A stretch of 53,646 bases of DNA from Parcubacteria bacterium C7867-004 (GCA_001189075.1 LFCN01000004.1:1-53646), one strand, 5' to 3'; positions 9,954 to 36,095 are shown, counted from the first letter of the stretch. Translations and numbers: made by a program. The notes: generated from the letters alone by a model not told the origin.

Positions 9954-11399
9954 ATGTCTAAGACCATCCTTGTCACCGGCGGAGCCGGATTCATCGGCAG
10001 CAATCTCTGTAAGCGCCTTGTAAATGATGGGCATCGGGTAATCAGCCTCGACAATTATTTCGCGGGAAGCCAGAAGAATCACGTCCCGGGCGTCGAATAC
10101 CGCGAAGGCCATACCAAGGACATCGAGCAGCATGTCAGCGAGACTCCCGACGTGGTGTATCATCTGGGCGAATATTCCCGAGTCGAGCAGAGCGTTCTCG
10201 AGCCTGATGTCGTCTTTGACCTGAATACCGAAGGCACGAAGGGTGTCATCGCGTTCTGGAAGAAGCGACGGTGCAAGCTCGTGTATGCCGGCTCGTCCAC
10301 GAAATTCGCGGACGAGGGGTTGGACAAGGAGACGGTCCCGTATGTCGCGACGAAAGCCGCGAACACCGAACTCGTCAAAGCCGTTGGTGACTCGGAAGGA
10401 CTTTCGTACGCCATCACGTATTTCTATAACGTATACGGGCCGGGCGAGCGGGCCGGCGTCTACGGTACCGTCATAGAAGCGTTCAAGCAGATGTACCAGG
10501 AAGGCGTACCGTTCACCATCACGAGTCCCGGTACGCAAGCGCGGAACTTCACGCATGTCGATGATATTGTCGATGGTCTCGTACTCGTCGGCGAGCATGG
10601 GCAAGGAGACGAATACGGCCTCGGGAACGAACGGATCTTCACCATCCTCGAGGTAGCGAATCTGTTCGGGGGAGATGTTGTGATGCTGCCTGCACGCAGC
10701 GCTAACCGCACGCTATCTAAACTTGATACGTCGAAGTCACGCTCACTTGGCTGGAACCCGACACGCGAGCTCGATGCATACATCAGCGACTTTCGCGCTT
10801 CCTGTCCTCGTGGAGTCGCTCGCGAGAAGCGCGTCCTCGTATTCTCGACGACCTTCTATCCGATAATGGGACCGGCAGAGCAGGCGCTCGTCGAGCTCAT
10901 GCGGCAAATGCCTGACGTATCATTCGATATTGTGACTGCGGCATTCGCTCACGATGCGCACGCATCGGGGTCACCCGTTGCCAATGCGCAGGTGCATCGT
11001 GTTGGCTTTGGTCATCCCGTCGATAAGTACCTACTGCCAATTCTGGGTTCCCTGAAAGGCATGGCGCTCCAGCGTACACATCGCTATCTTTTCGCCTGGG
11101 CACTTATGGCGAGCTACGGCGCGCTCGCTGGTATTCTCGTGCGACGGCTGAAGCGACTTCCACTGCTTACCACCCTCGCCGATCAGCGTCTGGAAAACAT
11201 TTCCCCGATCGTACGATTGCTGCTGCGTCTCATCCTCTCGGAAACGGATCAGGTCTATGGCATCGACGCGACGCAGGAGGCACAGGTTCAGGGAGTCGCG
11301 CGTCGTGCTCTTGCTCGCACCTCGATAGGGGAAGGGGACGCATTCGCTAATCAGCTGCGTTATGCGTATGCGCAGACGCTCATCGCTCTGAAGTCATAA
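9954..11399 (+). CDS. NAD-dependent sugar-nucleotide epimerase/dehydratase (UDP-glucuronate-decarboxylase-like SDR) fused to an orphan GT4 N-terminal-half domain
   Basis: ILVTGGAGFIGSNL and the YxxxK-type motif PYVATKAANT in aa 1-~295. The C-terminal ~185 aa (RVLVFSTTFYPIMGPAEQA...HRVGFG...) parallel the N-terminus of the next GT4 gene. Confidence 0.8.
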   Translation: MSKTILVTGGAGFIGSNLCKRLVNDGHRVISLDNYFAGSQKNHVPGVEYREGHTKDIEQHVSETPDVVYHLGEYSRVEQSVLEPDVVFDLNTEGTKGVIAFWKKRRCKLVYAGSSTKFADEGLDKETVPYVATKAANTELVKAVGDSEGLSYAITYFYNVYGPGERAGVYGTVIEAFKQMYQEGVPFTITSPGTQARNFTHVDDIVDGLVLVGEHGQGDEYGLGNERIFTILEVANLFGGDVVMLPARSANRTLSKLDTSKSRSLGWNPTRELDAYISDFRASCPRGVAREKRVLVFSTTFYPIMGPAEQALVELMRQMPDVSFDIVTAAFAHDAHASGSPVANAQVHRVGFGHPVDKYLLPILGSLKGMALQRTHRYLFAWALMASYGALAGILVRRLKRLPLLTTLADQRLENISPIVRLLLRLILSETDQVYGIDATQEAQVQGVARRALARTSIGEGDAFANQLRYAYAQTLIALKS

Positions 11400-11410
11400 T
11401 CATTACCATC

Positions 11411-12619
11411 ATGAAGCGCATCCTCATATTCTCCCTCAACTACTATCCCCGTTTCATCGGCGGTGCTGAGGTGGCTATTAAGGAGATAACCGATCGCGTT
11501 TCTCCCGAGGAGATCGAGTTCCACATGGTTACGCTCCGGTTCGATTCCAATCTTCCGAAGAAGGAGCGCGTCGGGAACGTGATAGTGCACCGCATCGGTC
11601 CGACGGTGAAGGATCCGTCGATAGCGGACCTTAAGAAGTTCCCTCTGCATCTGAACAAGCATCTGTATCAGATACTCGCGGCAGACAAGGCGCTTTGGCT
11701 GCACCTCCAATATCGCTTCGACGGCATCTGGGCCATGATGGCACACTCGTGTGGCATCCCCGCAGCCATCTTTAAGATTTTCATGCCGAAAGTACCGTAC
11801 CTGCTTACGCTCCAGGAAGGGGATCCGCCTGAGCATATCGAGCGCCTCGCGCGTCCCGTATGGCCGCTCTTCAAGCGCGGATTCACGAGCGCGGATTATA
11901 TCCAGCCGATCTCGAACTTCCTATTCGCGTGGGGCATACGCATGGGCTTCAAAGGATACGGCGAGGTTATACCGAACGCGGTTGACGTCCCGAAGTTCGC
12001 GAAGGTGCAGCAGACGGCTGACATCGAACGCATGAAGGAGAAGCTCGGGAAGAAAGATGATGACGTGTTCATGGTCACAACCTCACGTCTCGTCCATAAG
12101 AATGCCGTCGACGATTGTATCCGCGCGCTCCCGCTTCTTCCAGAACACGTCTCGTTCCTTATCTACGGCATCGGTCCGGATGAGGAGAAATTACGTGCTC
12201 TCGCTGAGGAGCTCGGTGTAGCTGATCGCTCACGCTTCATGGGGCAGATCAGCCATGACGAGATGCCGCTCATGCTCCGCGCGTGCGATATATTCATTCG
12301 TCCGTCGCGATCGGAAGGTATGGGTAATTCCTTCGTTGAGGCCATGGCCGCCGGGCTTCCGGTTATTGCGACACAGGAGGGCGGTATTGCCGATTTCCTA
12401 TTCGATGAGAAAAAGAATCCCGACAAAGGGACTACGGGGTGGGCGGTAGCGAGTGATTCGCCAGAGGAGATCAGAGATGCGGTGAAGGATATACTCGCGC
12501 GCCCAGAGAAGGTTGCGAGTGTTACGAACACCGCGCGCGCTATGGTCGAAAAGACCTATGACTGGGATATCGTCGCGTCCTCAATGCGAAGCCTCTTCAC
12601 ACGCATGACGACGCGGTAG
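11411..12619 (+). CDS. Glycosyltransferase family 4
   Basis: RILIFSLNYYPRFIGGAEV at the N-terminus. C-terminal SEGMGNSFVEAMAAGLPVIATQEGG (E-x7-E region). Confidence 0.85.
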   Translation: MKRILIFSLNYYPRFIGGAEVAIKEITDRVSPEEIEFHMVTLRFDSNLPKKERVGNVIVHRIGPTVKDPSIADLKKFPLHLNKHLYQILAADKALWLHLQYRFDGIWAMMAHSCGIPAAIFKIFMPKVPYLLTLQEGDPPEHIERLARPVWPLFKRGFTSADYIQPISNFLFAWGIRMGFKGYGEVIPNAVDVPKFAKVQQTADIERMKEKLGKKDDDVFMVTTSRLVHKNAVDDCIRALPLLPEHVSFLIYGIGPDEEKLRALAEELGVADRSRFMGQISHDEMPLMLRACDIFIRPSRSEGMGNSFVEAMAAGLPVIATQEGGIADFLFDEKKNPDKGTTGWAVASDSPEEIRDAVKDILARPEKVASVTNTARAMVEKTYDWDIVASSMRSLFTRMTTR

Positions 12620-12631: not shown

Positions 12632-13729
12632 ATGCGGCTTCTTATTGCGACACCGCTGTATCCTCCTGAGCTCGGAGGGCCCGCGACCTACTCGAAGATC
12701 CTCGAGGAAGAATTACCGAAGCATGGCATCACGGTTGCGTTAGTTAAATTTACGGACGTGAAGCGGTATCCGAAAGGCATCCGCTCGCTGCTCTATTTCT
12801 TCACGCTCCTTCGAGCGGGAAAGGATGCCGACCTCATATTCGCGCTTGATCCAGTATCGACCGGACTCCCGTCGCTCATGGCGGCGAAACTCCTCCGTAA
12901 ACCATTAGTGCTCAAGATTGTCGGAGATTACGCATGGGAGCAGGGAAAACAGCGGTTCGGTATCTCCTCCTCGCTTGATATGTTCGTGCGTGAGCGCCAG
13001 CATTCTCCTCTGGTGCGCTTGTTCCAGCAAGTGCAGACCTACGTGGCAAAGGAGGCGAAGACGGTTATCGTGCCGAGCGAATATCTGAAAGGCATCATTG
13101 AGCACTGGGGAGTAGCGAATGATCGCATCACGGTGATCCACAATGCGGTTACGAAAGAGAATGCTGGTACGCTTCCGAAAGATCTTCCGCAGAAGCGTCC
13201 TCGCATCATCTCAGTCGGCAGGCTCGTGCCCTGGAAGGGAATGGGCGGGCTCATTGATGCGGTCGCAGATGCGCGCCAGAAGATTCCGGACGCAACGCTC
13301 ATCATCGCGGGGGAAGGTCCTGATCGCAATGACCTCGAGGCGTATGCGAAGGCACGCCTTAGGGACGGCTACCAATTCACGGGGAGTCTTGATAACGGTG
13401 AAGTGCATGCGCTGCTCGCGAGTGCGGATATGCTCGTACTCAACTCCTCATACGAAGGCCTCTCGCATCTCCTTATCGAGGCGATGATCGAAGGTACGCC
13501 CACCATCGCTACCGCAGTTGGTGGCAACGGTGAGGTTATCACCGACGGCGTAGACGGCATGCTCGTGCCCCATGGAGACCGTACGGCGCTTGCAGACGCA
13601 ATCGTTGCACTCGCTACCGAGGAGGGTCTTGCTGAGCGTCTTCACTTCGCAGCGAAGGAATCGAGCAAGCGCTTCAGCGTCAAGACCATGATCGAGCAGA
13701 CCTCGAAGATTCTCACCGAGAACGTATGA
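12632..13729 (+). CDS. Glycosyltransferase family 4
   Basis: MRLLIATPLYPPELGGPATY and YEGLSHLLIEAMIEGTPTIATAVGGNGEV. Confidence 0.85.
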   Translation: MRLLIATPLYPPELGGPATYSKILEEELPKHGITVALVKFTDVKRYPKGIRSLLYFFTLLRAGKDADLIFALDPVSTGLPSLMAAKLLRKPLVLKIVGDYAWEQGKQRFGISSSLDMFVRERQHSPLVRLFQQVQTYVAKEAKTVIVPSEYLKGIIEHWGVANDRITVIHNAVTKENAGTLPKDLPQKRPRIISVGRLVPWKGMGGLIDAVADARQKIPDATLIIAGEGPDRNDLEAYAKARLRDGYQFTGSLDNGEVHALLASADMLVLNSSYEGLSHLLIEAMIEGTPTIATAVGGNGEVITDGVDGMLVPHGDRTALADAIVALATEEGLAERLHFAAKESSKRFSVKTMIEQTSKILTENV

Positions 13730-14865
13730 CCAAGGTACTGTTCGTTTCGAACGATCCTGCGCTCTTTATAGAAGGAAGCGCGGTACGAACGCGCATGCAG
13801 CGCTACGCGCACGAGATCGGCGAACTCTTTATTGTCTCCCGTGCACCCGAGTCATGTGTGATCGAAGAGGGTCCGCTCATGATCAAGGGGGTCAAGACTA
13901 CGAAGCTCGGCGTCGTGAGTGCGCTCGCCCGTGCCGCCCGTTCAATCATTCTCGAGCGGGGTATCGAGATAGTGTCAGCTCAGGACCCCTTCGAGTACGG
14001 CTTGGCGGCGCTGAACGCAACAAAAGGAACAGCAGCGAAACTCCACATACAAGTGCATACCGATCTCTGGTCACCATGGTTCATACACGGCGGGAATGCG
14101 CTCTCCGCGCAGGTGCGTATGCCGCTCCTGAATCGTGTGCGCAGGATCATCGCGGACCGGGTGCTGCCTCACGCCGATGGAATCCGCACTGTATCGAACC
14201 GCGTGCGTGAATCCCTCATCGTGCGCTACGACAGCCGTATCCCGTCGCCGTCCGTTATTCCCATAGAGGTTGATAGCAAGCTACCTGATGCAGTCCCGCT
14301 TCCTCCACACGATTTCACGTTCGCGCTCATCACGGTAAGCCGTCTTGAGCCGGAGAAGCGGATCGAAGACCTCATTTTCGCGATCGCACGCGTGAGTATG
14401 CGCTACCCGTCCGTCGGGCTCTTCATCGTCGGTGAAGGAAGTATGCGCACTCGTCTCGAACGCATGGTACACAGACTCAATCTTGGAAACCGCGTGGTAT
14501 TCCTCGGCGCGCGAACTGATGCCCGCGGCCTGATGCGAAGCTGCCAGGCGTACATTCAGGCGAGCGGGTATGAGGGCTACGGACTCACGCTCGTCGAGGC
14601 AGCCCTCTCCCGTATCCCGATCATAACCACCGACGTCGGCATTGTTGGAGAGGTCTTTAAAGGCTTTGAAGAGGTGCTCGTAGCGCCTCCTGGAGACCCC
14701 GCAGCGCTCGCTACTCATATCATGGGACTGGTCGAGGATATGGACTGCAGGAGCCAGCTCATCATGTCCGCCGAACACGCAGCTAAGGAGCATTTGGCCC
14801 AGAACATGGACCAACCGAAGGCCATAGCCCTCGACCTTGCCCGGTTACTCGAAAAAAAGGGCTAA
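13726..14865 (+). CDS. Glycosyltransferase family 4
   Basis: SGYEGYGLTLVEAALSRIPIITTDVGIVGEV. ATGA overlap with the upstream gene. Confidence 0.8.
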   Translation: MTKVLFVSNDPALFIEGSAVRTRMQRYAHEIGELFIVSRAPESCVIEEGPLMIKGVKTTKLGVVSALARAARSIILERGIEIVSAQDPFEYGLAALNATKGTAAKLHIQVHTDLWSPWFIHGGNALSAQVRMPLLNRVRRIIADRVLPHADGIRTVSNRVRESLIVRYDSRIPSPSVIPIEVDSKLPDAVPLPPHDFTFALITVSRLEPEKRIEDLIFAIARVSMRYPSVGLFIVGEGSMRTRLERMVHRLNLGNRVVFLGARTDARGLMRSCQAYIQASGYEGYGLTLVEAALSRIPIITTDVGIVGEVFKGFEEVLVAPPGDPAALATHIMGLVEDMDCRSQLIMSAEHAAKEHLAQNMDQPKAIALDLARLLEKKG

Positions 14866-14898: not shown

Positions 14899-15864
14899 AT
14901 GAAGAACATAGTAACCATCGGCGGGGGGACCGGGACCTTCGTGGTCCTTTCCGGTCTGAGGCGCATTCCTGGCGTCGCTCTTTCGGCTATCGTCACCTCG
15001 GCTGACGATGGAGGCTCTACGGGGCACCTGCGGGACGCCTACGGGTTCCTGCCGGCCGGAGACGCCCGTCAGGCGCTTGTAGCGCTCGCTGAGGACGGGA
15101 ATGTACTGCGTGATCTCTTTGCCTACCGCTTCGAGAAGAGCGACGTCAAAGGGCATAACCTCGGGAATCTCTTCCTAACCGCCCTTACCGATCTGCTCGG
15201 ATCGGATGCAGCTGCGCTCGAAGAGGCGTCTCGGATCCTTCGGGTGTGCGGCACGGTTATCCCGGCGACCGAGGAGGCGACCACGCTCGTCGCGAAGCTT
15301 GCCGACGGCTCCGTACTCAAGAACGAACGGCTCATCGATGATCATGCGCAAGGACGCGCACGCATCGAAGAGCTGGCGCTCGAGAAGAACGCGGCGCTCT
15401 CTCCGGCAGCAAAAGACGCAATTGAGGAAGCCGACCTCATCGTACTTGGACCGGGTGACCTCTACACCTCGAGCATCGCCGCCTTGCTTCCGGACGGCAT
15501 GAAAGAAGCGGTGCAAGCATCGAGGGCGAGGCTCGTCTATGTCGGCAACCTGTTCACGAAAGCCGGACAGACCGAAGGATATACCGCGCGCGATCATGTG
15601 CGCGAGATAGCGCGCTATGCGGGACGCGAGCCGGATGTCATCATCCTGAACGACAACGGGCTCTCGAAGGAAGTGCTCGAGAAGTATGCCGCCGAAGGGG
15701 AGTATCCACCGGTTGATGACTTCCTTCCAACGGACGCCCGGGTGCGCAGGCTCCCGCTCGTGTCCGTGTATGTCGTTCCTGCAGTCGAGAACGATCCGCT
15801 TCCGCGCTCGCTCATCCGTCATGACCCGGCGAAGCTCGCCGCAGCGCTCAGCAAACTTCTCTAA
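14899..15864 (+). CDS. YvcK/CofD-like (UPF0052, gluconeogenesis factor family) protein
   Basis: IVTIGGGTGTFVVLSGLR and SAIVTSADDGGSTGHLRD are hallmark YvcK motifs. Confidence 0.85.
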   Translation: MKNIVTIGGGTGTFVVLSGLRRIPGVALSAIVTSADDGGSTGHLRDAYGFLPAGDARQALVALAEDGNVLRDLFAYRFEKSDVKGHNLGNLFLTALTDLLGSDAAALEEASRILRVCGTVIPATEEATTLVAKLADGSVLKNERLIDDHAQGRARIEELALEKNAALSPAAKDAIEEADLIVLGPGDLYTSSIAALLPDGMKEAVQASRARLVYVGNLFTKAGQTEGYTARDHVREIARYAGREPDVIILNDNGLSKEVLEKYAAEGEYPPVDDFLPTDARVRRLPLVSVYVVPAVENDPLPRSLIRHDPAKLAAALSKLL

Positions 15865-16736
15865 TGGACTCTCTCCGCATCGGCTTCATCGGGCAGGGAT
15901 GGATCGGCAAGAACTATGCCGACGATTTCGAGGCGCGCGGATACGACATCGTGCGCTACGGACTCGAGCCTGAGTACGCGGGCAATCGAGAGGCGATAGC
16001 CGAGTGCGATATCGTCTTCATTGCGGTACCGACGCCGACGACAGCCGCGGGATTCGACTCGTCCATCGTGCGCTCAACGCTCTCGCTCGTTGGGAAGGGG
16101 AAAATTGCGGTGCTTAAGTCGACCCTGCTCCCGGGAACAACCGAAGAGCTGCATGCCGCGTTCCCCGATATCATTCTCATGAACTCTCCGGAGTTCCTCA
16201 GGGAATCGAATGCGGCGCATGACGCTGCGCACCCGGAACGGAATCTCATCGGCATTCCCGAGGATACGGATAGCTACAAGAACGCTGCCGAGACTGTGCT
16301 ATCCGTACTGCCGAAGGCGCCCTATGCGCGAATCATGAGAGCGCGCGCTGCCGAACTCACGAAGTACGCTGGAAACGTATTCCTTACGCTCAAGGTCGTG
16401 TACGCCAACATGCTGTATGACCTCGCCGCTTCCATGGATATCCCGTACGAGGAAGTGAAGGACGCGCTTGCTGCCGATCCCCGCATAGGTCCGTCGCACC
16501 TGTCTCCGGTCTCGGCCTCCGGGCATACGGACAAAGCGGGCAGGGGAGCAGGCGGTCACTGCTTCATCAAAGACCTCGAGGCGTTCCGCAGACTCTATGC
16601 GGAGAAGGTTGGCGACGAAGAAGGAAAAGAGGTCCTTAGAGCTAACGTCCTGAAGAACAACGCGCTGCTCACGGCATCAGAAAAGGATCTCGATCTGCTT
16701 GAGGGCGTCTACGGTAAAGACGAAGATATCGCATGA
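15864..16736 (+). CDS. UDP-glucose/GDP-mannose dehydrogenase family protein, short form (no C-terminal UDP-binding domain)
   Basis: IGFIGQGWIGKN Rossmann motif, IVFIAVPTPT, and the catalytic-Cys motif GGHCFIKD. It is only 290 aa. TAATG overlap upstream. Confidence 0.7.
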   Translation: MDSLRIGFIGQGWIGKNYADDFEARGYDIVRYGLEPEYAGNREAIAECDIVFIAVPTPTTAAGFDSSIVRSTLSLVGKGKIAVLKSTLLPGTTEELHAAFPDIILMNSPEFLRESNAAHDAAHPERNLIGIPEDTDSYKNAAETVLSVLPKAPYARIMRARAAELTKYAGNVFLTLKVVYANMLYDLAASMDIPYEEVKDALAADPRIGPSHLSPVSASGHTDKAGRGAGGHCFIKDLEAFRRLYAEKVGDEEGKEVLRANVLKNNALLTASEKDLDLLEGVYGKDEDIA

Positions 16737-17242
16737 CCTATTACCTTGATTTCGATCGTACTATGTTCGACACCGAGGCCTTCAAGGAGTGGCTGTGGAA
16801 ACGCGAAGGCACTGAGGATCTTTCTCCGGAGGAACGGGTTCTCGATGCCTATCGAAAGGCTGACGACGGTACGCTCTCGTTCGCACCGGGAGAATTGTCC
16901 CGATTCCTCTACCAGGACGCCGCCGCGTTCCTCAGGGAGAAAGAGAATTCGGTTACGGTTATAACGTACGGCAACAAGGCGCTTCAGGAAGCGAAGACCA
17001 AGAGCGCATTTCACGGGATACCGCGCGTCTCGGTCATGCTTACGGGTGACGTGCGTAAGGGCGTGTTCTTGGCGCCCCATGCGCACCTGCATGCGGGCGC
17101 CGTGCTTGCCGACGACACGCCGCTCGAGCTTGAGATCATAAGCCGGGAATGTCCGGGCCTTGCGCTGTACGAGGTGCGGCGCGATGGGAAAGAAGAGGAC
17201 GGACGCTGGCCGGTCGTTCGATCGCTCTCGGAGCTTCCATGA
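16733..17242 (+). CDS. HAD-superfamily hydrolase-like protein
   Basis: Motif I YLDFDRTMFDT (DxDxT) and a C-terminal acidic motif LADDTP. ATGA overlaps at both ends. Confidence 0.6.
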   Translation: MTYYLDFDRTMFDTEAFKEWLWKREGTEDLSPEERVLDAYRKADDGTLSFAPGELSRFLYQDAAAFLREKENSVTVITYGNKALQEAKTKSAFHGIPRVSVMLTGDVRKGVFLAPHAHLHAGAVLADDTPLELEIISRECPGLALYEVRRDGKEEDGRWPVVRSLSELP

Positions 17243-18264
17243 GACTCCTCGTCGTAACGCAGGTAGTGGATTCTAAGGACTCCGTTCTTGGCGCCTACCA
17301 TGCGTGGCTCCGCGAGCTTGCGAAGCATTTCGAACACATTGAGGTAGTGTGTCTGTTCGAAGGGGAGCATGCGCTTCCCGAGAACGTGCAGGTACACTCG
17401 CTTGGCAAAGAGAAGGCGGTATCTCCTTCATACGTATACGCGTTTCGCTTCATGCGCTTCGCGTGGTCGCTCCGGAATCAGTATGACTCGGTGCTCGTAC
17501 ATATGAATCAGGAATACATCCTCCTTGCGGGGGTGCTCTGGAAGTTTCTCGGGAAGCCGATATATCTCTGGCGCAATCACTTTGCGGGATCCTGGCTCAC
17601 CGATGTTGCTGCCGCTTTCTGTACGAAGGTCTACTGCACTTCGAAGCATTCCTATACCGCCAAGTACCGGAAGACCGAACTCATGCCGGTAGGCGTTAAT
17701 CTTGAGCGGTTTACGCAGACAGCATCGGTACGGAGAGAGCCAAAGTCCATTCTCTTTCTTGCGCGCATTGCGCCGTCGAAGCGCCCCGACGTATTGATCG
17801 AGGCACTCGGCATCCTTCTCGCAAAAGGGGTGAGCTTCGTCGCCTCGGTATACGGGTCCGCGCTCCCTGCCGATGCTGCGTACCTCGAGAACCTCAAGTC
17901 CAGAGTCGAGATTCTCGGTCTCCATGACCGCGTGAGGTTCTATCCGAGCGTACCGAACGAAAAGACGCCCGAGGTATTCCAGGCGCACGAGCTATTCGTG
18001 AACTGCTCGCCGAGCGGCATGTTCGATAAGACGCTGTTCGAAGCGGCGGCTTCTGGGTGCCTCGTGCTTGCCGCAAGTGAGGACTGGCGTGATCACGCAG
18101 GGGAGGCGGCCTGGTTCGATGGAACGAGCGAAGGGCTTGCCGACCGGCTTTCAGAGGTCCTTACGACAAGCGAGGCGTTTGAAGCGGCTGAGGCTGAGTC
18201 GCACAGCCTCGCGTCTCTGGGCTCGGCACTCGCCGCATCGATTGGGGCCTCGGGGCAGTTATAG
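17239..18264 (+). CDS. Glycosyltransferase (GT4/GT1-like fold)
   Basis: Start moved to ATG 17239 (MRLLVVTQVV...), which overlaps the upstream stop as ATGA. The C-terminal half has ILFLARIAPSKRPDVLIEA and MFDKTLFEAAASGCLVLA. Confidence 0.75.
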   Translation: MRLLVVTQVVDSKDSVLGAYHAWLRELAKHFEHIEVVCLFEGEHALPENVQVHSLGKEKAVSPSYVYAFRFMRFAWSLRNQYDSVLVHMNQEYILLAGVLWKFLGKPIYLWRNHFAGSWLTDVAAAFCTKVYCTSKHSYTAKYRKTELMPVGVNLERFTQTASVRREPKSILFLARIAPSKRPDVLIEALGILLAKGVSFVASVYGSALPADAAYLENLKSRVEILGLHDRVRFYPSVPNEKTPEVFQAHELFVNCSPSGMFDKTLFEAAASGCLVLAASEDWRDHAGEAAWFDGTSEGLADRLSEVLTTSEAFEAAEAESHSLASLGSALAASIGASGQL

Positions 18265-28314: not shown

Positions 28315-29705
28315 GAGCCGGTCGCCAACAGCTTCCTCCCGTTCTTCTTGTTTTCCCAGAACAGATTGAGCGTTGCCGCAGCGCCGATGAGGATCAGCGG
28401 CTCGATCGGCATTCTATAGCGGGCATGCGCTATGGGGCCGGTAACGAGCGCAAAGTAGAGCATGATGGAGAAGAACATCCAGGCGAGACGGCGATTCTTT
28501 GAGTACCAGAGACCAAGAAGTACGAGCAGCGTAGTGAACGCCCAGAATGCGTTTTCGACCAGTGTCCATCCGTGGTTCTTAAGCACAATCAGAAGCGTGG
28601 GGAAGGAGAACGGATGAAGCGCTTTGAGCAATGAGGGTTCCGGTGCCGGGTCGAACTCCGGAAGCATGAGATAGACGAAACGATCGTAGTTGCCTGCGCC
28701 GCTCGCGGTGAAGAACGGAATGAACGTACTCAGATGAAAGAGCGTGTAGCTGAATGGGTGCTCGAGGATAACCTCCACCGCGACTTTTTTGAGGACTTCC
28801 GAGTACTTGGGATCGAGCGGTACCGGGCCGTGCGGGATGCCCGCCCTATCTTGAAGTGCATAGCGCGCCTCGATATTCGGGATACCGTTATACGCTTCAT
28901 AGAATTGCGTCGCGTTATGACGGAAGAGCTGGAACGCGCTCGTTGATGCAAACTGCAAGGAGCCGAGCACGTGGTTGTTACGTAGGCACCAGGGAGCGAG
29001 TACTGCGGCGAACGTAAGCACCATAAGCACCGCAGCAATAGCGTATTTCCGTGAGAACTCTTTCCACGGAAGAAATACCAGGAAGTAGGCCGGGATGAAG
29101 AAAGGAAGGATGTAGAGAGCAGCAGGCTTGATATAGGCGGCGGCTCCGAGGATGGCCCCGGTGAGTACCCATCGAGCGTAGATATTCTTCATCGACGAGA
29201 AGAAAAATACGTACAGTGCGCTGACGAACACAAACATGAACAGCGTTTCGTTCATGATCGTCGCTACCGAAAGGAGTGTGGTGGGAAGCACTATATAGAG
29301 AACAGTCGTTGCGAGCGCCCAGGATTCAGGAATGACGCGCTTTGCCATCCGGAAGATGAGGACCGCCGTGAGGAAGAGCAGCAGAAGCTGTGCGATGAGT
29401 ACGGGGTAGAAATCCCCGAATAGTGCATAGAATGGAGCGAGGAATGCCGGATACCCGGGCGTGCGCCACATATCGGGCGTGAGCGTTGAGGTGGTGCTCA
29501 TCGAGAATACCTGGTGATCGATCAGGTTCACCGTAAGTGTGGCGAACTCGCCCGACATCGTGCCGCTCTGTGTAGGGTACTCACGGGCCATTCTCGTGTC
29601 CGAAGTCTCCGCTACGTGCGTGAGGTACGCGATGCTTGCGCCTCCGGCGATGACGGTGATGATGAAGAGAATCGCGTACGGACGGTATCGGCGCTGCATA
29701 GGCAT
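28311..29705 (-). CDS. GT-C fold membrane glycosyltransferase (ArnT / GT39 / GT83-like)
   Basis: Polytopic membrane protein with WRTPGYPAFLAPFYALFG near the first periplasmic loop. The start is chosen at 29705, where ATG overlaps the upstream stop as TAATG (ORF track start 29738). Confidence 0.75.
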   Translation of the reverse strand: MPMQRRYRPYAILFIITVIAGGASIAYLTHVAETSDTRMAREYPTQSGTMSGEFATLTVNLIDHQVFSMSTTSTLTPDMWRTPGYPAFLAPFYALFGDFYPVLIAQLLLLFLTAVLIFRMAKRVIPESWALATTVLYIVLPTTLLSVATIMNETLFMFVFVSALYVFFFSSMKNIYARWVLTGAILGAAAYIKPAALYILPFFIPAYFLVFLPWKEFSRKYAIAAVLMVLTFAAVLAPWCLRNNHVLGSLQFASTSAFQLFRHNATQFYEAYNGIPNIEARYALQDRAGIPHGPVPLDPKYSEVLKKVAVEVILEHPFSYTLFHLSTFIPFFTASGAGNYDRFVYLMLPEFDPAPEPSLLKALHPFSFPTLLIVLKNHGWTLVENAFWAFTTLLVLLGLWYSKNRRLAWMFFSIMLYFALVTGPIAHARYRMPIEPLILIGAAATLNLFWENKKNGRKLLATGS

Positions 29706-30391
29706 TAATCGGTGAAGCGATACTTTATAACGGTCCACAGTATCTTGAACCCATCCCGCCAGTTTATCTTCTTCCCGGCTGCGTAGTCGCGCGGATAGTA
29801 GCGTATGGGGATATGCGTCACGCGGTATCCGTTCTTAAGGAGCTTGCAGACCAGCTCGTGCTCATACGCGAAGTCATGGGTACGTACTGGGGTAGCCGCG
29901 ACTGCCTCCTTTGTGAACACTTTATAGCCGCCGGTATATTCTGGAGCTTTGCCGCCGTGAAGCACGTTCGTCGCGATAGTTATGGCGGCGTTTCCAAGAA
30001 GATAGGGAATGCTCCAGAGGTATTTCCCGTTCCCGGTGGGTCGACGCACGCCGACGAGCGCATCTGCCGTACCCTCGATGAACGGCTGGAGAAGAAGGGG
30101 ATAGTCTTTTGGGTCGTACTCGAGATCCGCGTCCTGGATCAAGAGGATATCGCCTGTAGCCTCTCTGAATCCCGTACGCACCGCGGCACCCTTACCGGGT
30201 CGGGATTCTTGCAGTACCCGTACGCCGTCTATGCTGTTCGCAATGGAAAACGTCGCATCGGTCGAATTGTTATCGACCACGATGATCTCTACCTCTTGCG
30301 GCGAGAGGTCGACTGCCTGCACCTTTCGGACTATCTCGGCGAGCGTGGACTCCTCGTTGTAGGCGGGGATGACGATGGATACTTTCTTCAT
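29705..30391 (-). CDS. GT2 polyprenyl-phosphate sugar synthase (DPM1/ArnC/CsbB-like)
   Basis: [46 protein letters not shown]. Confidence 0.85.
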
Positions 30392-30407
30392 GGAATGTCA
30401 GCGAAAA

Positions 30408-30436
30408 TTGACTTTGTGTAGGATATATTCTTTAAT
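30408..30436 (+). promoter_or_regulatory. Sigma-70-like promoter: TTGACT, 17-nt spacer, TTTAAT
   Basis: TTGACT (30408-30413), 17-nt spacer, TTTAAT (30431-30436), in the divergent intergenic region. Confidence 0.5.
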
Positions 30437-30484
30437 GAATGCCGCTGTTCCCATTCAACATAGGTATGAGAAAGGAAGGACTCC

Positions 30485-31021
30485 TTGAAAGGTAGCATCA
30501 TATTTGCGCTGCACAAAAGCCCGTATCCGAAAAGGAAGGGGCCCTCGCACTGGGCTGACTGGTATCGAGGGTGCTTGAAGGCCGTCGATATCCAGCGCGT
30601 GCTCGACGCGAGCGGCGTTACGTCGGAAATGCTCGTTCTCACCGACGCGCAGTACAAGGGCGGTCTCCACGAGGTCGACTATTATACTGCCGCATTCGAT
30701 GAGCTCGGTGCGCACAACGTTCGTGTCATCCGCAAGTGCTACGAGACGGTGCGGCAGATCGAGATGGCCTTGCAGATCTCGCAGAACGAAGACAAGGACC
30801 TTATCGTCATTTCGACGTGGGTCCACTATCTCCGCGTGTGCTGGCTGCTTCGTGGATCAGGTGCCACGCACCGCATCGCCTTCGGCATCCCGAATCTCCA
30901 GTACGCTATTGCCGACGTCATCCTGACGTTTGCGTTCCCGGTGATCGACCTGGTCCCCGGTGGCCGCGAACGGTTCGTGGCGTATGCCGAGGACAAGAGG
31001 TTCAAAGGCGAGTACCAGTAA
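30485..31021 (+). CDS. Hypothetical protein, possibly DUF218/YdcF-like
   Basis: TTG start with GAAAGGAAGGA upstream. The DLIVISTWVHYLRVCWLL segment resembles the DUF218 core. Low certainty. Confidence 0.45.
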   Translation: MKGSIIFALHKSPYPKRKGPSHWADWYRGCLKAVDIQRVLDASGVTSEMLVLTDAQYKGGLHEVDYYTAAFDELGAHNVRVIRKCYETVRQIEMALQISQNEDKDLIVISTWVHYLRVCWLLRGSGATHRIAFGIPNLQYAIADVILTFAFPVIDLVPGGRERFVAYAEDKRFKGEYQ

Positions 31022-31063
31022 ACAAGGGACCTGGCGCCTTCGAGCGGCACCGGGTCTTTCTTT

Positions 31064-31720
31064 TTGTACATGAATTTTGCGTTATACTTGCCCCTAATGC
31101 AGTCCATCTTCAAGCAAGCAATCGATGCCGAGACCATTCGATCGATAAATGAGGCCGTGGATGCGGCGAGCGACGGCGAGAGCTTCGAGATGCTCATTCC
31201 GCCTAAGACGACAGCGTTTCTCGCTCCGTTCAAGACCACCCTGAACCAGCAGTGCAACGCTATCAATTGGGATGCGGATTCCTTTGTGGTCACACGCACC
31301 ACAACCGAGAAGGGGAACCGCGCGGCCCAGTGCTTCCATTTTGATAATTTCCGTAAGACGACCCTCATCGTGCTGAAGTCAGGCGACGCTGCGCTGAATG
31401 GCGATATCCTGATACGGAACGGTCTGCGGAAGTCACCGAAGTCGCTCTGGCCGACCATGGTCACTAAAATCTTCTGGACAAACCCGGTAACCTGGGCGTT
31501 TCTGCGCATACCGTTCATACGGGATCGATTCTTTACGCGCGTCCCGCTCGTTGCGGGCGACGTCATGGTGTTCGACGGCAGCACGACGTATCACGGCAAT
31601 CTACCGCTCTCTGCCGGCGTGCGCCGCAGCATCCTGATTCACGAGGATCCGCTTTTCAAGGATGCCTTTATCACGAAGCTGTTCCATCGTCTCTGTACGA
31701 TGATCTTCTATAAGACGTAG
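31064..31720 (+). CDS. Hypothetical protein, possibly a Fe(II)/2-oxoglutarate dioxygenase fold
   Basis: HFD (HxD), a later TYHGN histidine and RRS arginine occur in the order expected for the 2OG-oxygenase facial triad. The start is uncertain. Confidence 0.4.
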   Translation: MYMNFALYLPLMQSIFKQAIDAETIRSINEAVDAASDGESFEMLIPPKTTAFLAPFKTTLNQQCNAINWDADSFVVTRTTTEKGNRAAQCFHFDNFRKTTLIVLKSGDAALNGDILIRNGLRKSPKSLWPTMVTKIFWTNPVTWAFLRIPFIRDRFFTRVPLVAGDVMVFDGSTTYHGNLPLSAGVRRSILIHEDPLFKDAFITKLFHRLCTMIFYKT

Positions 31721-31735
31721 GATGCGTTTCCTGTC

Positions 31736-32443
31736 ATGATTGATTTCACCTACGAAGGCCGTGACCTCGAAGCGATGTCGTTCGCCCAGAAGTATCACGA
31801 GTGGATACTTAGCCTGTTCCGTCCCTTTCTTGGAAAACGAATAGCGGAAGTGGGAGCCGGTTCGGGAAGTTTTACTGAGCTTCTTCTGAACGAAGGCGTC
31901 GAGGAACTGGTGGCTGTCGAGCCATCGAAGGAGATGTACCCGCTTCTCGTAAGACGCATGCAGGGGGATGCTCGCGTCATGTGCCGAAATGGATTCTTTG
32001 GAGACGAGAGTGTCGCATATCCCGAGCACTTCGACTCGATCGTGTACGTCAACGTTCTTGAACACGTCGAAGACGATGCGGGAGAGCTCCGTCATGTGTA
32101 TGCGGCGCTCGCTCCCGGAGGAACGGTGTGCATCTTCGTTCCGGCTCTCTCCTGGCTCTATAGCGAATACGATGCATCGATCGGTCATCATCGCCGATAT
32201 GGAAAGAAGCAGTTATCAAAGCTCGTGCGGGATGCCGGATTCGAGGTCGCAACTCTCGGGTACTTCGATATGGTCGGCGTGCTCGCGTGGCTACTTATCG
32301 TGAAGCTCCTGAAGAAAAGCCCGAGCGCAGGTAGCGTGGGTATCTATGACAACGTAATCGTTCCGGTCGAACGCATCATCGAATCAATGGTGCGAGCGCC
32401 ACTTGGAAAGAATCTTTTTATAGTTGGACGGAAGCCTGCTTGA
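31736..32443 (+). CDS. Class I SAM-dependent methyltransferase
   Basis: IAEVGAGSGSFTELL, VAVEPSKEM, NVLEHVEDD, LAPGGTVCIFVP. Confidence 0.78.
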   Translation: MIDFTYEGRDLEAMSFAQKYHEWILSLFRPFLGKRIAEVGAGSGSFTELLLNEGVEELVAVEPSKEMYPLLVRRMQGDARVMCRNGFFGDESVAYPEHFDSIVYVNVLEHVEDDAGELRHVYAALAPGGTVCIFVPALSWLYSEYDASIGHHRRYGKKQLSKLVRDAGFEVATLGYFDMVGVLAWLLIVKLLKKSPSAGSVGIYDNVIVPVERIIESMVRAPLGKNLFIVGRKPA

Positions 32444-32831
32444 AGACCACGCCGTGGTACGCGACATAGCCGGTGACAGCGATCACGACTCCGCCCGCGA
32501 TTTGCGCGAATAGATACCAGAGGCCGAGTATGTCCACCAAGACATATACGACCACGGTGTTGACGCACAGGTTGATGAGGCCGACTAGTGCGTAGCCTGC
32601 GAATTGCACGTGCACGCCTGAAGCGACCGTATGGTCCCTGAAGGTCCAGTATTTCTGAAGCGTAAAGCCGAGAGTCATCGAGCCGAGAACTGCGAGGATC
32701 GAGGCGAGGAGGTAGTGGAAGCCGAAGAAGTGAACGAGCACGAATAGGATGAGCAGGTTACCGAGTGCAGCGGTGGTCCCGGAGAAGAGATAGCGCAGGA
32801 GTTTACGTATCTTGGGCGTGAGCATGCTCAT
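32418..32831 (-). CDS. GtrA-family membrane protein
   Basis: Four TM helices. LLRYLFSGTTAALGNLLILFVLV and QKYWTFRD are typical of the GtrA family. Confidence 0.82.
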   Translation of the reverse strand: MSMLTPKIRKLLRYLFSGTTAALGNLLILFVLVHFFGFHYLLASILAVLGSMTLGFTLQKYWTFRDHTVASGVHVQFAGYALVGLINLCVNTVVVYVLVDILGLWYLFAQIAGGVVIAVTGYVAYHGVVFKQASVQL

Positions 32832-32901: not shown

Positions 32902-35082
32902 ATGATACAGACCATTGCGCGGTGGGGGGTTATTTCGACGTTATTCCTCATAACCCTTATCCCGATGTATATGTCGGGACAGCTGTTCTTTCCTTTCATA
33001 ACGGGGAAGGCGTTCGCATTCCGTATCCTTGTCGAGATAGCGCTCGCGTCCTACCTGCTCCTCGTTTTGGTAGATCGGAAGTACCGGCCCCGCTTCTCCT
33101 GGACGCTCGTGATCTTCGGAGTGTTCACCGCCTGGGTGGCGGTCGCTGACGCATTCGGCGTCTTGCCGGTAAAAGCATTCTGGAGCAACTTTGAGCGCAT
33201 GGACGGCTGGGTGACGCTCATCCACGTCTTCGCGCTCTTCCTCATCACCGGAGCGGTCTTCTCGGTTGAGAAGCTGTGGCGGAAATGGTGGCTCGCGGTT
33301 ATCGCGGTATCGGTCATCGTCTGTCTTCATGGTGTGATGCAGATCCTACATGTGCCGGGTTTCGCCATACACCAGGGCGGTGTGCGTGCTGATGCGAATT
33401 TTGGCAACGCTATCTACCTCGCCGTCTATCTCATGTTCACGCTCTTCGTGACCGCCTGGCAGGCGATTGTGTCTCGCGGCTGGCTGCGTAATCTGCTCCT
33501 ATGTCTCATACCGATCCAACTCCTCGTGCTCGTGGCGGCTTCTTCGCGCGGCGCGCTGATCGGCCTTGTCGCAGGCGTCGTACTCTCCGCGGCGCTCTTC
33601 CTGTTCGAATCGAGGAAGCAGTGGAAAGATTCTCTGGCAGCGAAGATCGCACTCGGCGTCCTTATCGCGCTCACACTCAGTGCAGGCGCCTTCTTCCTTG
33701 CGCGTGACACGGCGTTCGTGAAGAGCGACCCGTCGCTCTCGCGCATGGCGACGGTCTTCTCGCTCGGACAGGAGCTTTCCGTTCGCTCGACCCTGTGGAG
33801 TATCGCGCTCGAGGGCGCCAAGGATCGTCCCATCGTTGGTTGGGGTCAGGAGGGATTCAGTCAGGTCTTCAATACCTACTATCACCCTTCGCTCTATGAG
33901 CAGGAATCGTGGTTCGATCGGGCGCATAACACGTATCTCGATTGGCTCGTCGCCGGCGGCGTGCCCGCGCTCGTCCTCTTCATCCTTCTGCTCGGCTTCG
34001 CGTTCGTAGCGCTCTTTCGTGCGAAGGGTATGGAGCCAGCAGAACGCATCCTCCTGATCGGCGCGCTCGGCGCGTATGCCGTGCAGGCGATCGCCATATT
34101 CGATAACCTGTGGAGCTATATCCCGCTGGCGGTGATACTCGCGATGGCGCACGCGTCCTCATCTCGGGAAATCCCTGCGCTCGCGAAGCTTCCGGAAGCC
34201 CGCTCTACAAATGCGACCGGCGCCGCTGTAGCCGCCATTGCGGTGATCGCAGTAGCGCTCATGTGGAGCGTGAACGTCCCGAACATCCGCGCGGCGAGCC
34301 ATCTCGTATACGCGATCTCTCCGATCGCGACCGATCTCAAGGTTAATTATGGTCTCTTCGAGAAGGCACTTGCTGACCATTCGTTTGGCGATCAGGAAAT
34401 CAGGGAGCAGCTCGTTCAGTACACGACCCGTGTGCTCCAGAGCAAGAAGGTTCCCGATGAGCTCAAGCTTTCGTTCGTAGCGCTCGCGAATAAGGAGATG
34501 GAAGCGCAGATTGCGCAGTCTCCGAATGATGCGCGCCTGCGCGTTCTTGCCGCCACAATGTTCGACGCGACCGGTGAATTCGACCGTGCGCTCGAGCAGA
34601 TAGATGCCGCAATACTGCTCTCCCCGAAGAAGCAGACGCTTCACCTCAAGCGCGCGTACGAGCTCTGGAGCCTTAATCGCGACGACGAGGCTCTCGAAGC
34701 CGCGAAATACGCACGCGATCTCGATCCGTCATTCCCGTCGATAGCGGTGTCCGCGGCCTACGGTATGATCCTCAATGGCGATCTCGCAGAAGGGAAGGCG
34801 CTCCTCACCGAAGCGGTTGGAACGACGACGCTCGACGATGATCAGCTCTTCTACGCGTACTACCAGGCAAAGGCGTACCCTGATCTGATACTCGTCGCTG
34901 CAGAGCGCGTCACGGTTACCAAGGGAGATCCGGAAGCGCGCTATCGCCTCGCGCAAGCATATGCAGCTGCAGGTCAGTTCGAGAACGCCAGGCGCGAGAT
35001 CGTCTTCACAATCGCGGAGCACCCCGAGGCGAAAGCCGCCGGCGAAGCGCTCATGAAGGAGATCTTCGTCCCTGCCCGATGA
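32902..35082 (+). CDS. O-antigen-ligase/polymerase-like (Wzy_C) polytopic membrane protein with a C-terminal TPR domain
   Basis: About 12 TM helices. SSRGALIGLVAGVVL and DRAHNTYLDWLVAGGVP are Wzy_C-type motifs. The C-terminal ~270 aa are helical repeats (TPR-like). Confidence 0.8.
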   Translation: MIQTIARWGVISTLFLITLIPMYMSGQLFFPFITGKAFAFRILVEIALASYLLLVLVDRKYRPRFSWTLVIFGVFTAWVAVADAFGVLPVKAFWSNFERMDGWVTLIHVFALFLITGAVFSVEKLWRKWWLAVIAVSVIVCLHGVMQILHVPGFAIHQGGVRADANFGNAIYLAVYLMFTLFVTAWQAIVSRGWLRNLLLCLIPIQLLVLVAASSRGALIGLVAGVVLSAALFLFESRKQWKDSLAAKIALGVLIALTLSAGAFFLARDTAFVKSDPSLSRMATVFSLGQELSVRSTLWSIALEGAKDRPIVGWGQEGFSQVFNTYYHPSLYEQESWFDRAHNTYLDWLVAGGVPALVLFILLLGFAFVALFRAKGMEPAERILLIGALGAYAVQAIAIFDNLWSYIPLAVILAMAHASSSREIPALAKLPEARSTNATGAAVAAIAVIAVALMWSVNVPNIRAASHLVYAISPIATDLKVNYGLFEKALADHSFGDQEIREQLVQYTTRVLQSKKVPDELKLSFVALANKEMEAQIAQSPNDARLRVLAATMFDATGEFDRALEQIDAAILLSPKKQTLHLKRAYELWSLNRDDEALEAAKYARDLDPSFPSIAVSAAYGMILNGDLAEGKALLTEAVGTTTLDDDQLFYAYYQAKAYPDLILVAAERVTVTKGDPEARYRLAQAYAAAGQFENARREIVFTIAEHPEAKAAGEALMKEIFVPAR

Positions 35083-36095
35083 TCCACGGGGAGAACATCC
35101 CGCTCGCGCGCTTGACGACGCTCAAGGTGGGCGGACCCGCGCTGCACGTCATCGAGTGCGCTTCGGTAGACGATGTGCGGGAAGCGGTGGCGTTCGCGCG
35201 GGAGCAGCACCTCCCCCTCCTGCCGCTCGGGGAAGGGAGTAACGTGCTCGCGAGCGACGAGGGGTTTCCGGGCGTCGTGCTTCGTATGACTATACCGGGC
35301 ATTGTGGCTGAGGAATCGGATGATTCCGTCACGCTCGTCTGCGGAGCGGGCGTTCCGTGGGATAGCGTCGTGCGTGAAGCGGCTAACCGCGCACTCTGGG
35401 GTATCGAGAATCTTGCGGGAATCCCCGGTACGACAGGAGCGGCACCAGTGCAGAACATTGGCGCGTACGGTATGGAGCTCAAGCAGACGCTCGCCTGGGT
35501 TGATGCGTTCGATACACATACGGGAGAGATCACTCGTATCGAGAATTCCGAATGTGATTTCGGTTACCGCGACAGTCGCTTTAAGCATGAGACGAATCTC
35601 ATCATCATATCGGTGGCGTTAACGCTTTCGCGTCATGGTAGTCCGCAGACCGGATACTCTGACCTGGCGCGCCTCGCATCGGAGGGGAATGATCTCTCGA
35701 CCCCGGCCCTGATAGGAGAAGCGGTCCGTGCGGTCCGTGCGCTCAAGTTTCCCGATCTCACCGTTGTCGGTACTGCAGGCTCGTTTTTCAAGAATCCGAT
35801 ACTGACAGGAGATCAGCATCTTCATCTTGCGGCGAAGTACGGCGCGGTGCCGAGCTTCCCGGTCGAAGGCGGCGTAAAGATTCCGCTCGCGTTCGTGCTT
35901 GATCGCGTGCTTAATCTCAAGGGACACGAGCAGGGCAACGTATCGCTGTTCGGCAATCAGCCGCTGGTGCTCGTTGCGCAAAGCGGAGCGACGGCGTCGG
36001 AGGTAGATGCGTTCGCAGATATGATCGCAGTGCGCGTTAAGGAAGCGACGGGCATCAGCATCAATCGTGAAGTGCGGCACTTTCCTGAGCGCTAG
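35079..36095 (+). CDS. murB: UDP-N-acetylenolpyruvoylglucosamine reductase
   Basis: LARLTTLKVGGPA and GEGSNVL FAD-binding motifs, GIPGTTGAAPVQNIGAYG, FGYRDS. ATGA overlap with the upstream gene. Confidence 0.9.
   Translation: MIHGENIPLARLTTLKVGGPALHVIECASVDDVREAVAFAREQHLPLLPLGEGSNVLASDEGFPGVVLRMTIPGIVAEESDDSVTLVCGAGVPWDSVVREAANRALWGIENLAGIPGTTGAAPVQNIGAYGMELKQTLAWVDAFDTHTGEITRIENSECDFGYRDSRFKHETNLIIISVALTLSRHGSPQTGYSDLARLASEGNDLSTPALIGEAVRAVRALKFPDLTVVGTAGSFFKNPILTGDQHLHLAAKYGAVPSFPVEGGVKIPLAFVLDRVLNLKGHEQGNVSLFGNQPLVLVAQSGATASEVDAFADMIAVRVKEATGISINREVRHFPER

Follow-up and report, generated by a model that had tools for sequence, protein, structure and literature searches.

A variable glycan-assembly region with a conserved WaaL-like Wzy_C-TPR enzyme, anchored in the mur neighbourhood of Paceibacteria

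Bacteria of the Candidate Phyla Radiation (CPR) live on other microbial cells, to which they are attached, and are preyed on by phages; their cell envelope is almost unknown, and they are regarded as lacking lipopolysaccharide (LPS). We analysed a stretch of 53,646 nucleotides (nt) from Parcubacteria bacterium C7867-004 (Paceibacteria; GCA_001189075.1, LFCN01000004.1:1-53646), originating from a groundwater metagenome and hereafter called the window, in which 25 glycan-related genes form an unbroken run at 9954-35082. The last of them encodes a WaaL-like transferase with a TPR domain, Wzy_C-TPR, and is followed by murB at 35079-36095. The sequencing runs that contain this sequence are all DNA runs, made from groundwater metagenomes. 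Genes were called in the 53,646-nt window from an open reading frame (ORF) listing together with Pfam and NCBIfam scans, and all window proteins were compared by tblastn with the 80 best loci of relatives, which carry L numbers below. An earlier reading, made from the sequence alone, had described a 25-kb island of about 26 genes; the gene run was recovered as described, with an exact count of 25. The features are given below in order of position (aa, amino acids; GT, glycosyltransferase).

1708-3030, plus strand: murD (Pfam Mur_ligase domains)
3027-3536, plus strand: NUDIX gene
3496-4806, plus strand: murC (Pfam Mur_ligase domains)
7962-9788, plus strand: TrwB/VirD4-like P-loop ATPase, the left anchor (Pfam TrwB_AAD_bind)
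9954-11399, plus strand: SDR epimerase/dehydratase, aa 1-243 (Epimerase, E=5.5e-41)
11411-12619, 12632-13729 and 13726-14865, plus strand: three tandem GT4 genes (Glycos_transf_1, E=1e-29 to 1e-38)
14899-15864, plus strand: YvcK/CofD-family UDP-GlcNAc-binding protein (TIGR01826, 278.8 bits, cut-off 196)
15864-16736, plus strand: short UGDH of 290 aa with UDPG_MGDP_dh_N and central domains only (Pfam)
16733-17242, plus strand: HAD-like small protein (DFDRT motif, by eye only)
17239-18264, plus strand: GT4 (Glycos_transf_1, E=3.4e-13), its ATG at 17239 overlapping the previous stop codon
18270-20348, plus strand: SDR-GT4 fusion (GDP_Man_Dehyd aa 14-303, Glycos_transf_1 aa 497-661)
20335-21132, plus strand: NodB/CE4 polysaccharide deacetylase (Polysacc_deac_1, E=3.9e-29)
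21084-21797, plus strand: S-adenosylmethionine (SAM) methyltransferase (Methyltransf_11, E=1.2e-6)
21801-22640, plus strand: GT2 (Glycos_transf_2, E=2.7e-18)
22674-23735, plus strand: UDP-GlcNAc 4,6-dehydratase of FnlA/PseB/CapD type (Polysacc_synt_2, E=7.6e-92)
23732-24850, plus strand: GT4 (Pfam)
24867-25562, plus strand: FkbM methyltransferase (Pfam)
25559-26218, plus strand: methyltransferase (Pfam)
26207-27502, minus strand: Wzx-type (MOP family) flippase (Polysacc_synt, E=3e-16) with about 10 transmembrane (TM) segments
27532-28314, plus strand: methyltransferase (Methyltransf_11, E=2.1e-20)
28311-29705, minus strand: GT-C (PMT_2) transferase (33.6 bits, cut-off 26.1)
29705-30391, minus strand: GT2 of 228 aa, like polyprenyl-phosphate sugar synthases (Glycos_transf_2, E=4.3e-32)
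30485-31021 and 31097-31720, plus strand: two proteins of unknown family (57% and 72% identity in L052)
31736-32443, plus strand: methyltransferase (Methyltransf_23, E=1.7e-17)
32418-32831, minus strand: GtrA-family small membrane protein (GtrA_DPMS_TM, 70.6 bits, cut-off 26.1)
32902-35082, plus strand: Wzy_C (WaaL-like) transferase with TPR, 726 aa (Wzy_C 71.7 bits, cut-off 31.7)
35079-36095, plus strand: murB (FAD_binding_4, MurB_C), its start overlapping the Wzy_C-TPR stop (ATGA)
43317-52079, plus strand: giant Ser/Thr-rich membrane-anchored surface protein with LVIVD repeats, a candidate acceptor only

The inventory of the sequence-only reading stood for the most part. Its nine glycosyltransferases (six GT4, including the SDR-GT4 fusion, along with two GT2 and one GT-C/PMT_2) and five SAM methyltransferases (at 21084, 24867, 25559, 27532 and 31736, one of FkbM type) were recovered by Pfam, as were its three sugar-nucleotide SDR enzymes (9954 with a C-terminal extension, the 18270 fusion and 22674). 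The NodB deacetylase, YvcK, Wzx, Wzy_C with TPR and murB were likewise found by Pfam/NCBIfam. Its HAD-like protein and possible 2OG oxygenase (31097-31720) show the motifs by eye, and neither matched a Pfam or NCBIfam model. The list had also been incomplete, the GtrA gene at 32418-32831 having been overlooked. No main ORF of the 53.6-kb window contained an LPS, tag/tar, Wza/Wzc, LCP or priming phosphoglycosyltransferase domain, in line with that reading as regards LPS, teichoic acid and capsule export, and TagO/TagA/TagF and glycerol- or ribitol-phosphate genes were not found in the window either.

What had been taken for an island is, however, not one unit but a variable cassette region between fixed anchors, with a semi-conserved left module and a flippase beside Wzy_C-TPR, which itself belongs to the conserved core. 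The locus thus has conserved flanks on both sides and a gene content differing between relatives, the two marks of rfb/cps-type loci. On the right, murB lay directly downstream of Wzy_C-TPR in 67 of the 68 loci that reach far enough downstream for its position to be scored, with SecA, Obg and GatB next after murB in most loci. Where the spacing could be read (65 loci), the two genes were no more than 30 bp apart in 52, and the stop of Wzy_C-TPR overlapped the start of murB in 34, in 29 of them by the same 4 bases as in the window. We propose that Wzy_C-TPR is co-translated with murB, an arrangement that would tie expression of the transferase to wall synthesis. It should be added that 4-base ATGA overlaps occur at the GT4/GT4 (13726, by coordinates), UGDH/HAD-like (16733), HAD-like/GT4 (17239) and Wzy_C-TPR/murB (35079) junctions, and their repetition indicates a presumably tightly coupled translation of the operon. 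A small ORF (53-59 aa) lies between murB and secA (36095-36643 in the window, 13403-13564 in L001), in the same place in the window contig and three relatives.

On the left, the locus was found between murD/murC and murB in every contig in which both sides were seen, and murD-murC stood to the left in all seven contigs that were examined there. The association with mur genes, on which the sequence-only reading had staked its claim, therefore holds, with one correction: murB does adjoin the glycan genes, whereas murC is separated from them by four unrelated genes (a hypothetical gene, rsmI, a membrane protein and the TrwB/VirD4-like ATPase; about 5.1 kb). Inspection of the left flank in L017 and L086-L090 revealed the same order, PrcB-murD-(NUDIX)-murC-rsmI-small ORF-membrane protein-(DAO)-TrwB-like ATPase, the ATPase being 66-86% identical among relatives and directly preceding the glycan genes in these loci.

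Both anchors were present on one contig in six contigs, the window included, with inserts from 2.8 to 23.1 kb of differing Pfam content:

CAZQGQ010000002.1: 2.8 kb, with one GT4 (55% to the GT4 at 13726) and Wzx
CAVXAH010000001.1: 12.2 kb
Ga0467075_0000033: 12.4 kb
JALHOO010000001.1: 20.2 kb
CAZUBJ010000004.1: 22.9 kb
Window: 23.1 kb

Among the relatives found, identity reached at most 61% for Wzy_C-TPR and 86% for TrwB. Relatives with the most similar core genes (SecA 77-80%, Wzy_C-TPR 52-58%) have GT25, GT-D, Caps_synth, RmlD and DUF218 genes instead and none of the right-hand island genes of the window, whereas in CAZUBJ010000004.1, which is more distant (SecA 72%, Wzy_C-TPR 45%), almost the entire island recurs in collinear form, at 49-91% identity. 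To the left, the relative most similar to the window (TrwB 86%, YvcK 92%) has SDR-GT4-GT4-GT4-YvcK-UGDH-HAD in common with it and then diverges. The tandem GT4 trio constitutes the semi-conserved left module, with orthologues of 44-75% identity in L086 and L088-L090; the GT4 at 13726 is its most widely retained member, and the sole glycosyltransferase of the minimal locus L017 resembles it (55%). A wider Pfam survey of gene content took in the 10 kb that precede Wzy_C-TPR in each of 15 diverse loci, 143 ORFs in all; the dominant families were GT4, methyltransferase, epimerase/dehydratase, Wzx, GT2, RmlD, NeuB, CMP-sugar synthetase, GtrA and ABC exporter.

A TrwB/VirD4-type coupling-protein domain at the left edge, together with the part of the island shared with a more distant genome, might be taken to mark a recently acquired mobile island tied to this ATPase and without specific relation to mur genes. 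We consider this extremely improbable and rejected it: the TrwB-like gene is a conserved syntenic core gene (66-86%), integrase, flanking repeats and tRNA are missing at the borders, GC content is even across the region, and glycan genes occupy the same site in all relatives examined.

Several observations concern the flank and the interval themselves. The TrwB-like ATPase, a syntenic core gene of Paceibacteria, stands beside mur genes, and its surroundings contain no further genes of conjugation. The gene at 6592-7665 encodes a membrane-anchored protein of 357 aa without Pfam match; its positional counterpart in L090 has a match to DUF4015, a family of putative glycoside hydrolases. L087-L089 have a DAO-family oxidoreductase between the membrane protein and TrwB, a gene that the window lacks, and in L086 (8870-10288, with LTD) and L090 (11916-13031, with HHH_3) a secreted PKD-domain protein separates the TrwB-like ATPase from the first of the glycan genes. 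In the variable region of the 15 loci, NeuB was found in 5 ORFs and CMP-sugar synthetase in 6, which points to nonulosonic acids as probable components of some Paceibacteria glycans.

Wzy_C-TPR is the constant element of this region. With its relatives it forms a family of full-length proteins, 710-730 aa long, and the best 120 matches show 46-61% identity; 1889 clusters were retrieved at E<1e-5, with the source labels Paceibacterota, Parcubacteria or Patescibacteria, names that support the assignment of the window to CPR/Parcubacteria. A scan of one genome per species placed a relative in at least 565 species genomes, a lower bound, Kaiserbacteria and Campbellbacteria included. The Wzy_C domain (aa 206-361) scores above the gathering threshold, which makes the protein a member of the Wzy_C/O-antigen ligase (WaaL-like) superfamily, and the TPR region extends over aa ~459-726 (Pfam TPR matches at aa 556-700, helical repeats at aa 459-721 in the AlphaFold model). 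From hydropathy and that model (AF2, pLDDT 88.4, pTM 0.84), the topology comprises TM1-9, a 75-residue loop (aa 268-343), TM10-12, a positively charged loop (aa 421-434), TM13 and the TPR domain of ~270 residues. By the orientation of WaaL and the positive loop at aa 421-434, the loop at aa 268-343 and the TPR domain would face outward.

The family profile matched the WaaL structure 7TPG at E=1.5e-7, and a profile of the TM part alone matched 7TPG_B at E=3.9e-8; a TM profile of 8 close sequences had lost the WaaL match, and a more diverse one of 14 sequences recovered it. R216, R295 and H342, invariant in 31 sequences, align with R191, R265 and H313 of 7TPG, which we take to be its pyrophosphate-binding and catalytic residues. 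Pyrophosphate-binding arginines and a catalytic histidine are reported to be common to WaaL and the O-linking transferase PglS (PMC12800693). The family profile gave no signal against E. coli K-12 WaaL in hhalign, and Foldseek with the full-length AF2 model returned TPR proteins only. In a window of 53.6 kb devoid of LPS genes, the enzyme is presumably not WaaL proper.

The identity of Wzy_C-TPR follows that of core genes (Spearman 0.82 with SecA, n=61; 0.80 with Obg). That of Wzx does not (0.09 with Wzy_C-TPR, n=30; 0.15 with SecA). Neither a Wzz-type regulator nor a second polymerase candidate was found in the window. Since the enzyme remains constant while the donor-building genes are replaced, and since it has no Wzz partner, it appears to behave as a ligase that tolerates different donors and not as a polymerase of repeat units. 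Because no separate polymerase or chain-length regulator is present, we regard transfer of an oligosaccharide en bloc as at least as likely as that of a long polymer.

Should Wzy_C-TPR instead be the Wzy polymerase of a classical Wzx/Wzy pathway, the product would be a long capsule-like or exopolysaccharide polymer, released or attached by an unlinked enzyme. Pfam Wzy_C does span some polymerases besides ligases, and our enzyme is the sole Wzy_C-family protein in the locus, paired with Wzx and often divergently adjacent to it. Wzy polymerases, however, are normally repeat-unit-specific and highly variable, whereas Wzy_C-TPR keeps 35-61% identity over its full length where donor-building genes are wholly replaced, and its divergence follows core genes. 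Wzz/PCP co-polymerase and export genes are moreover absent from the window, and some relatives have an ABC exporter as partner, as is typical where the chain is finished in the cytoplasm. We thus judge a polymerase quite improbable.

The methylated heteroglycan on a lipid carrier, flipped outward, that the sequence-only reading had envisaged is consistent with the gene content. We see an O-antigen-like variable surface-glycan locus, whose product is flipped and then moved en bloc by the conserved ligase to surface proteins, and we give this whole about an even chance of being right. In the cytoplasm, the FnlA/PseB-like dehydratase, the two further SDRs and the short UGDH, assigned by family, would tailor UDP-sugars, with UDP-GlcNAc probably converted to 6-deoxy-HexNAc-type sugars by the dehydratase and other SDRs. 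The 22674 dehydratase scored 352 bits with the FnlA and 314 bits with the PseB model, both under the equivalog cut-offs. The SDR half of the 18270 fusion resembles dTDP-glucose 4,6-dehydratase, and L086 has the same fusion (686 aa, 73%). Downstream of its SDR domain, the 9954 protein bears a C-terminal extension of ~240 aa without any Pfam match in a permissive scan; its relatives have 467-470 aa in L088 and L089 and are unfused, with 281-283 aa, in L086 and L090. By eye, the extension had been read as the N-terminal half of a GT-B enzyme, which neither BLASTP nor the permissive Pfam scan supported.

The UGDH lacks the C-terminal domain and, by reading of the translation, retains the catalytic Cys motif GGHCxxKD. 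Its description as truncated is right in so far as that domain is missing; it is not a fresh truncation, since a length of 290 aa recurs in L089 and its stop overlaps the start of the next ORF (ATGA). We also considered and rejected a frameshifted pseudogene, the downstream ORF being a separate HAD-like gene and the 290-aa form recurring in L089. The HAD-like protein has homologues of 43-74% identity in L086-L089, and YvcK is 92% identical to that of L089 and 62% to that of L086.

Six GT4 and one GT2 would then build the oligosaccharide on polyprenyl-diphosphate, started by a priming enzyme presumably encoded elsewhere in the genome, and up to five methyltransferases and the NodB-type deacetylase may modify the chain. 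The genes at 23732-26218 (GT4, FkbM, methyltransferase) also exist as JGI gene calls and have 59-91% identity in L052. The partial de-N-acetylation claimed by the sequence-only reading follows from a single NodB-family gene, for which sequence inspection showed no N-terminal signal peptide or TM segment, so that this part of the claim may be kept with reserve.

Wzx, assigned by family, would flip the chain to the outer face; its homologue lies upstream of Wzy_C-TPR in 30 related loci. In 4 of the 15 surveyed loci, a fused ABC half-transporter of 587-614 aa stands directly upstream of Wzy_C-TPR at the usual place of Wzx, and a PglK/MsbA-type half-transporter might take over the step in such relatives, which suggests that the flippase type is exchangeable. 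These loci are L009, L029, L041 and L050 (~8100-9950 in each), with ABC_membrane and ABC_tran domains and no Wzx. In L024 (8265-9956) and L053 (8229-9887), an ORF of ~555 aa without Pfam match occupies the position directly upstream of Wzy_C-TPR and could be another membrane transferase or exporter.

Wzy_C-TPR, with its aligned active site, would pass the glycan on en bloc, the TPR domain holding the conserved acceptor. A side sugar may be added outside the membrane from a polyprenyl-monophosphate donor by the GtrA, GT2 and GT-C proteins, whose genes are clustered within 4.5 kb (28311-32831) and resemble a GtrA/GtrB/GtrC-type module; it is present in only some relatives. For its GT2 (29705-30391), the best models were AglJ, PpgS and dolichyl-phosphate hexose transferase, with AglJ at E=4.6e-36 and PpgS at E=5e-13, both over the full length and under the equivalog cut-offs. 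The interleaved genes at 30485-31021 and 31097-31720 had no match in Pfam or NCBIfam, permissive scans included; a DUF218-like nature of the former, suspected by eye, found no support in BLASTP comparison or the permissive Pfam scan.

As acceptor, surface proteins appear most likely, by O-glycosylation of WsfB/PglL type; the candidate targets are pili and the Ser/Thr-rich giant protein. The characterised monoderm Wzy_C-family enzymes are, to our knowledge, S-layer O-transferases, and TPR domains bind proteins. WsfB, an S-layer O-transferase, and PglL have been reported with Wzy_C and a C-terminal TPR (PMC2943079). These likenesses and the syntenic giant protein are the grounds on which a protein acceptor is favoured. 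The giant protein has 2920 aa, 7 LVIVD repeats and one TM segment near aa 125-148, and its description in the sequence-only reading as Ser/Thr-rich was well founded, with 23.6% Ser+Thr against 11.3% in other window proteins. Of 31 relatives, 23 have at its position a long ORF that extends past the end of the locus; in one relative, the gene at this place is 4097 aa long. The giant protein and the membrane protein encoded just before it (41755-42630, 291 aa) are alike at their N-termini, where an HTH_17-like cytoplasmic domain precedes one TM segment.

A number of points weigh against this reading. The giant protein is 7 kb away and not adjacent, and the PglL-specific Pfam models PglL_A and Wzy_C_2 were not matched at E<=0.01. 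Foldseek with the TM-only model (8 sequences, pLDDT 67) returned no WaaL and weak RodA/FtsW matches, all at E>0.02. A priming phosphoglycosyltransferase (Bac_transf, Glycos_transf_4) was found neither in the window nor in the annotated related contexts, and the carrier chemistry is therefore assumed. Wzy_C-TPR could still polymerise by way of a conserved reducing-end sugar. As to turnover, the island identities (49-91%) overlap those of the flanks (45-74%) in a distant genome; for this reason we do not claim horizontal transfer to or from the L052 genome, the sharing with which may reflect either transfer or differential loss, and claim turnover only. The conserved murB coupling and the mur position, finally, suit a wall-directed role at least as naturally.

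In such a wall-directed role, Wzy_C-TPR would ligate the glycan to peptidoglycan/lipid II or to a membrane glycolipid anchor, giving a secondary wall polymer or lipoglycan by WaaL-type and not LCP-type chemistry, which we hold to be possible but on the doubtful side. The overlap with murB, of a kind associated with translational coupling, is a conserved trait of the clade; wherever both sides are seen, murD/murC and murB enclose the locus; the island includes YvcK, from a family of regulators that bind UDP-GlcNAc; and there is no LCP ligase in the window. Periplasmic TPR proteins, besides, often scaffold wall enzymes, and the nearest membrane folds in Foldseek, by weak matches, are the lipid II polymerases RodA and FtsW. 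Against these stand the possibility that gene order in reduced CPR genomes reflects operon packing and not function, the cytoplasmic location of MurB, without direct link to a reaction on the outer face, and the chance that the genome has LCP genes outside the window. Glycans are attached to the peptidoglycan of monoderm bacteria by LCP enzymes, and we know of no Wzy_C-family enzyme that does so.

The narrower proposal that in Paceibacteria a WaaL-like TPR ligase, co-translated with MurB, links O-antigen-like glycans, different from strain to strain, directly to peptidoglycan or to lipid II is, in our judgement, unlikely. If true, ligation to peptidoglycan or lipid II would constitute an LCP-independent route for decorating a monoderm wall and would give episymbionts a serotype-like surface diversity under host and phage selection.

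The novelty lies in how these features are combined: a probable ligase present across the clade and fused to an external TPR domain is coupled to murB and anchors a hypervariable glycan region in the mur neighbourhood of a CPR lineage. Searches of full-text libraries returned no description of this combination and no paper linking CPR or Patescibacteria to an O-antigen-ligase-type enzyme. The surface sugars of CPR bacteria probably decide attachment and phage sensitivity. Phages of Patescibacteriota carry O-antigen-type sugar-nucleotide genes (PMC12911398), which fits a surface glycan under phage pressure. One conserved enzyme, in at least 565 species genomes, is amenable to testing in E. coli glyco-engineering strains, and its fixed chromosomal address would allow surface-glycan typing of Paceibacteria metagenome-assembled genomes. 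A possibly donor-tolerant ligase with a built-in acceptor-binding domain may furthermore be of interest to glycoconjugate engineers.

Among known systems, the O-antigen (rfb) and capsule (cps) loci have the same conserved flanks and hypervariable content of glycosyltransferase and sugar-nucleotide genes, and there too Wzx travels with the cassette. As in rfb/cps systems with WaaL, the initiating transferase would be encoded elsewhere (WecA in E. coli), and a donor-tolerant WaaL-type enzyme with Arg/Arg/His residues stands outside the cassette. Unlike these Gram-negative Wzx/Wzy/WaaL systems, our locus lacks genes for the lipid A-core, for a Wzy polymerase, for a Wzz regulator and for export across an outer membrane; its ligase has an external TPR domain of ~270 aa and a predicted co-translation with murB, and its anchors are mur genes and a TrwB-like ATPase. 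Of the Wzx/Wzy-dependent pathway, the MOP-family Wzx is present, whereas polymerase, Wzz/PCP and a WbaP/WecA-type initiator were not found in the window.

LCP-dependent wall polymers and teichoic acids resemble the locus in their cytoplasmic lipid-linked precursor, Wzx/ABC export and proximity to wall-synthesis genes, but here LCP and TagO/TagA/TagF are missing from the window and the sole ligase candidate is of WaaL type. The systems of GtrA/GtrB/GtrC type (Shigella Gtr, CsbB/GtcA/YfhO, streptococcal GacI/J/L, mycobacterial PpgS/Rv3632/Rv3779) likewise have GT2, GtrA and GT-C clustered; the window differs in that its GT2, at 228 aa, is short and has no TM segments, as in PpgS or DPM1, and in that a methyltransferase and two genes of unknown family stand between the genes of the module.

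WsfB (Paenibacillus alvei S-layer), WsaB/WsaA (Geobacillus), PglL (Neisseria), PilO/TfpO and PglS have the Wzy_C catalytic domain in common with our enzyme. From these protein O-oligosaccharyltransferases the locus differs in the missing PglL_A/Wzy_C_2 match, in having no adjacent S-layer or pilin gene and an acceptor that is a candidate only, and in the murB link, which is foreign to them. Methylated glycans occur in S-layer glycoproteins. In Geobacillus, WsaA is a separate TPR protein beside WsaB (PMC2943079). The likeness lies in the C-terminal TPR of WsfB and PglL, in the en bloc transfer of an undecaprenyl-diphosphate-linked glycan with relaxed donor specificity and in a donor made by a variable cluster, as proposed here, and the S-layer glycosylation clusters of Gram-positive bacteria follow a logic similar to that of the locus described above.

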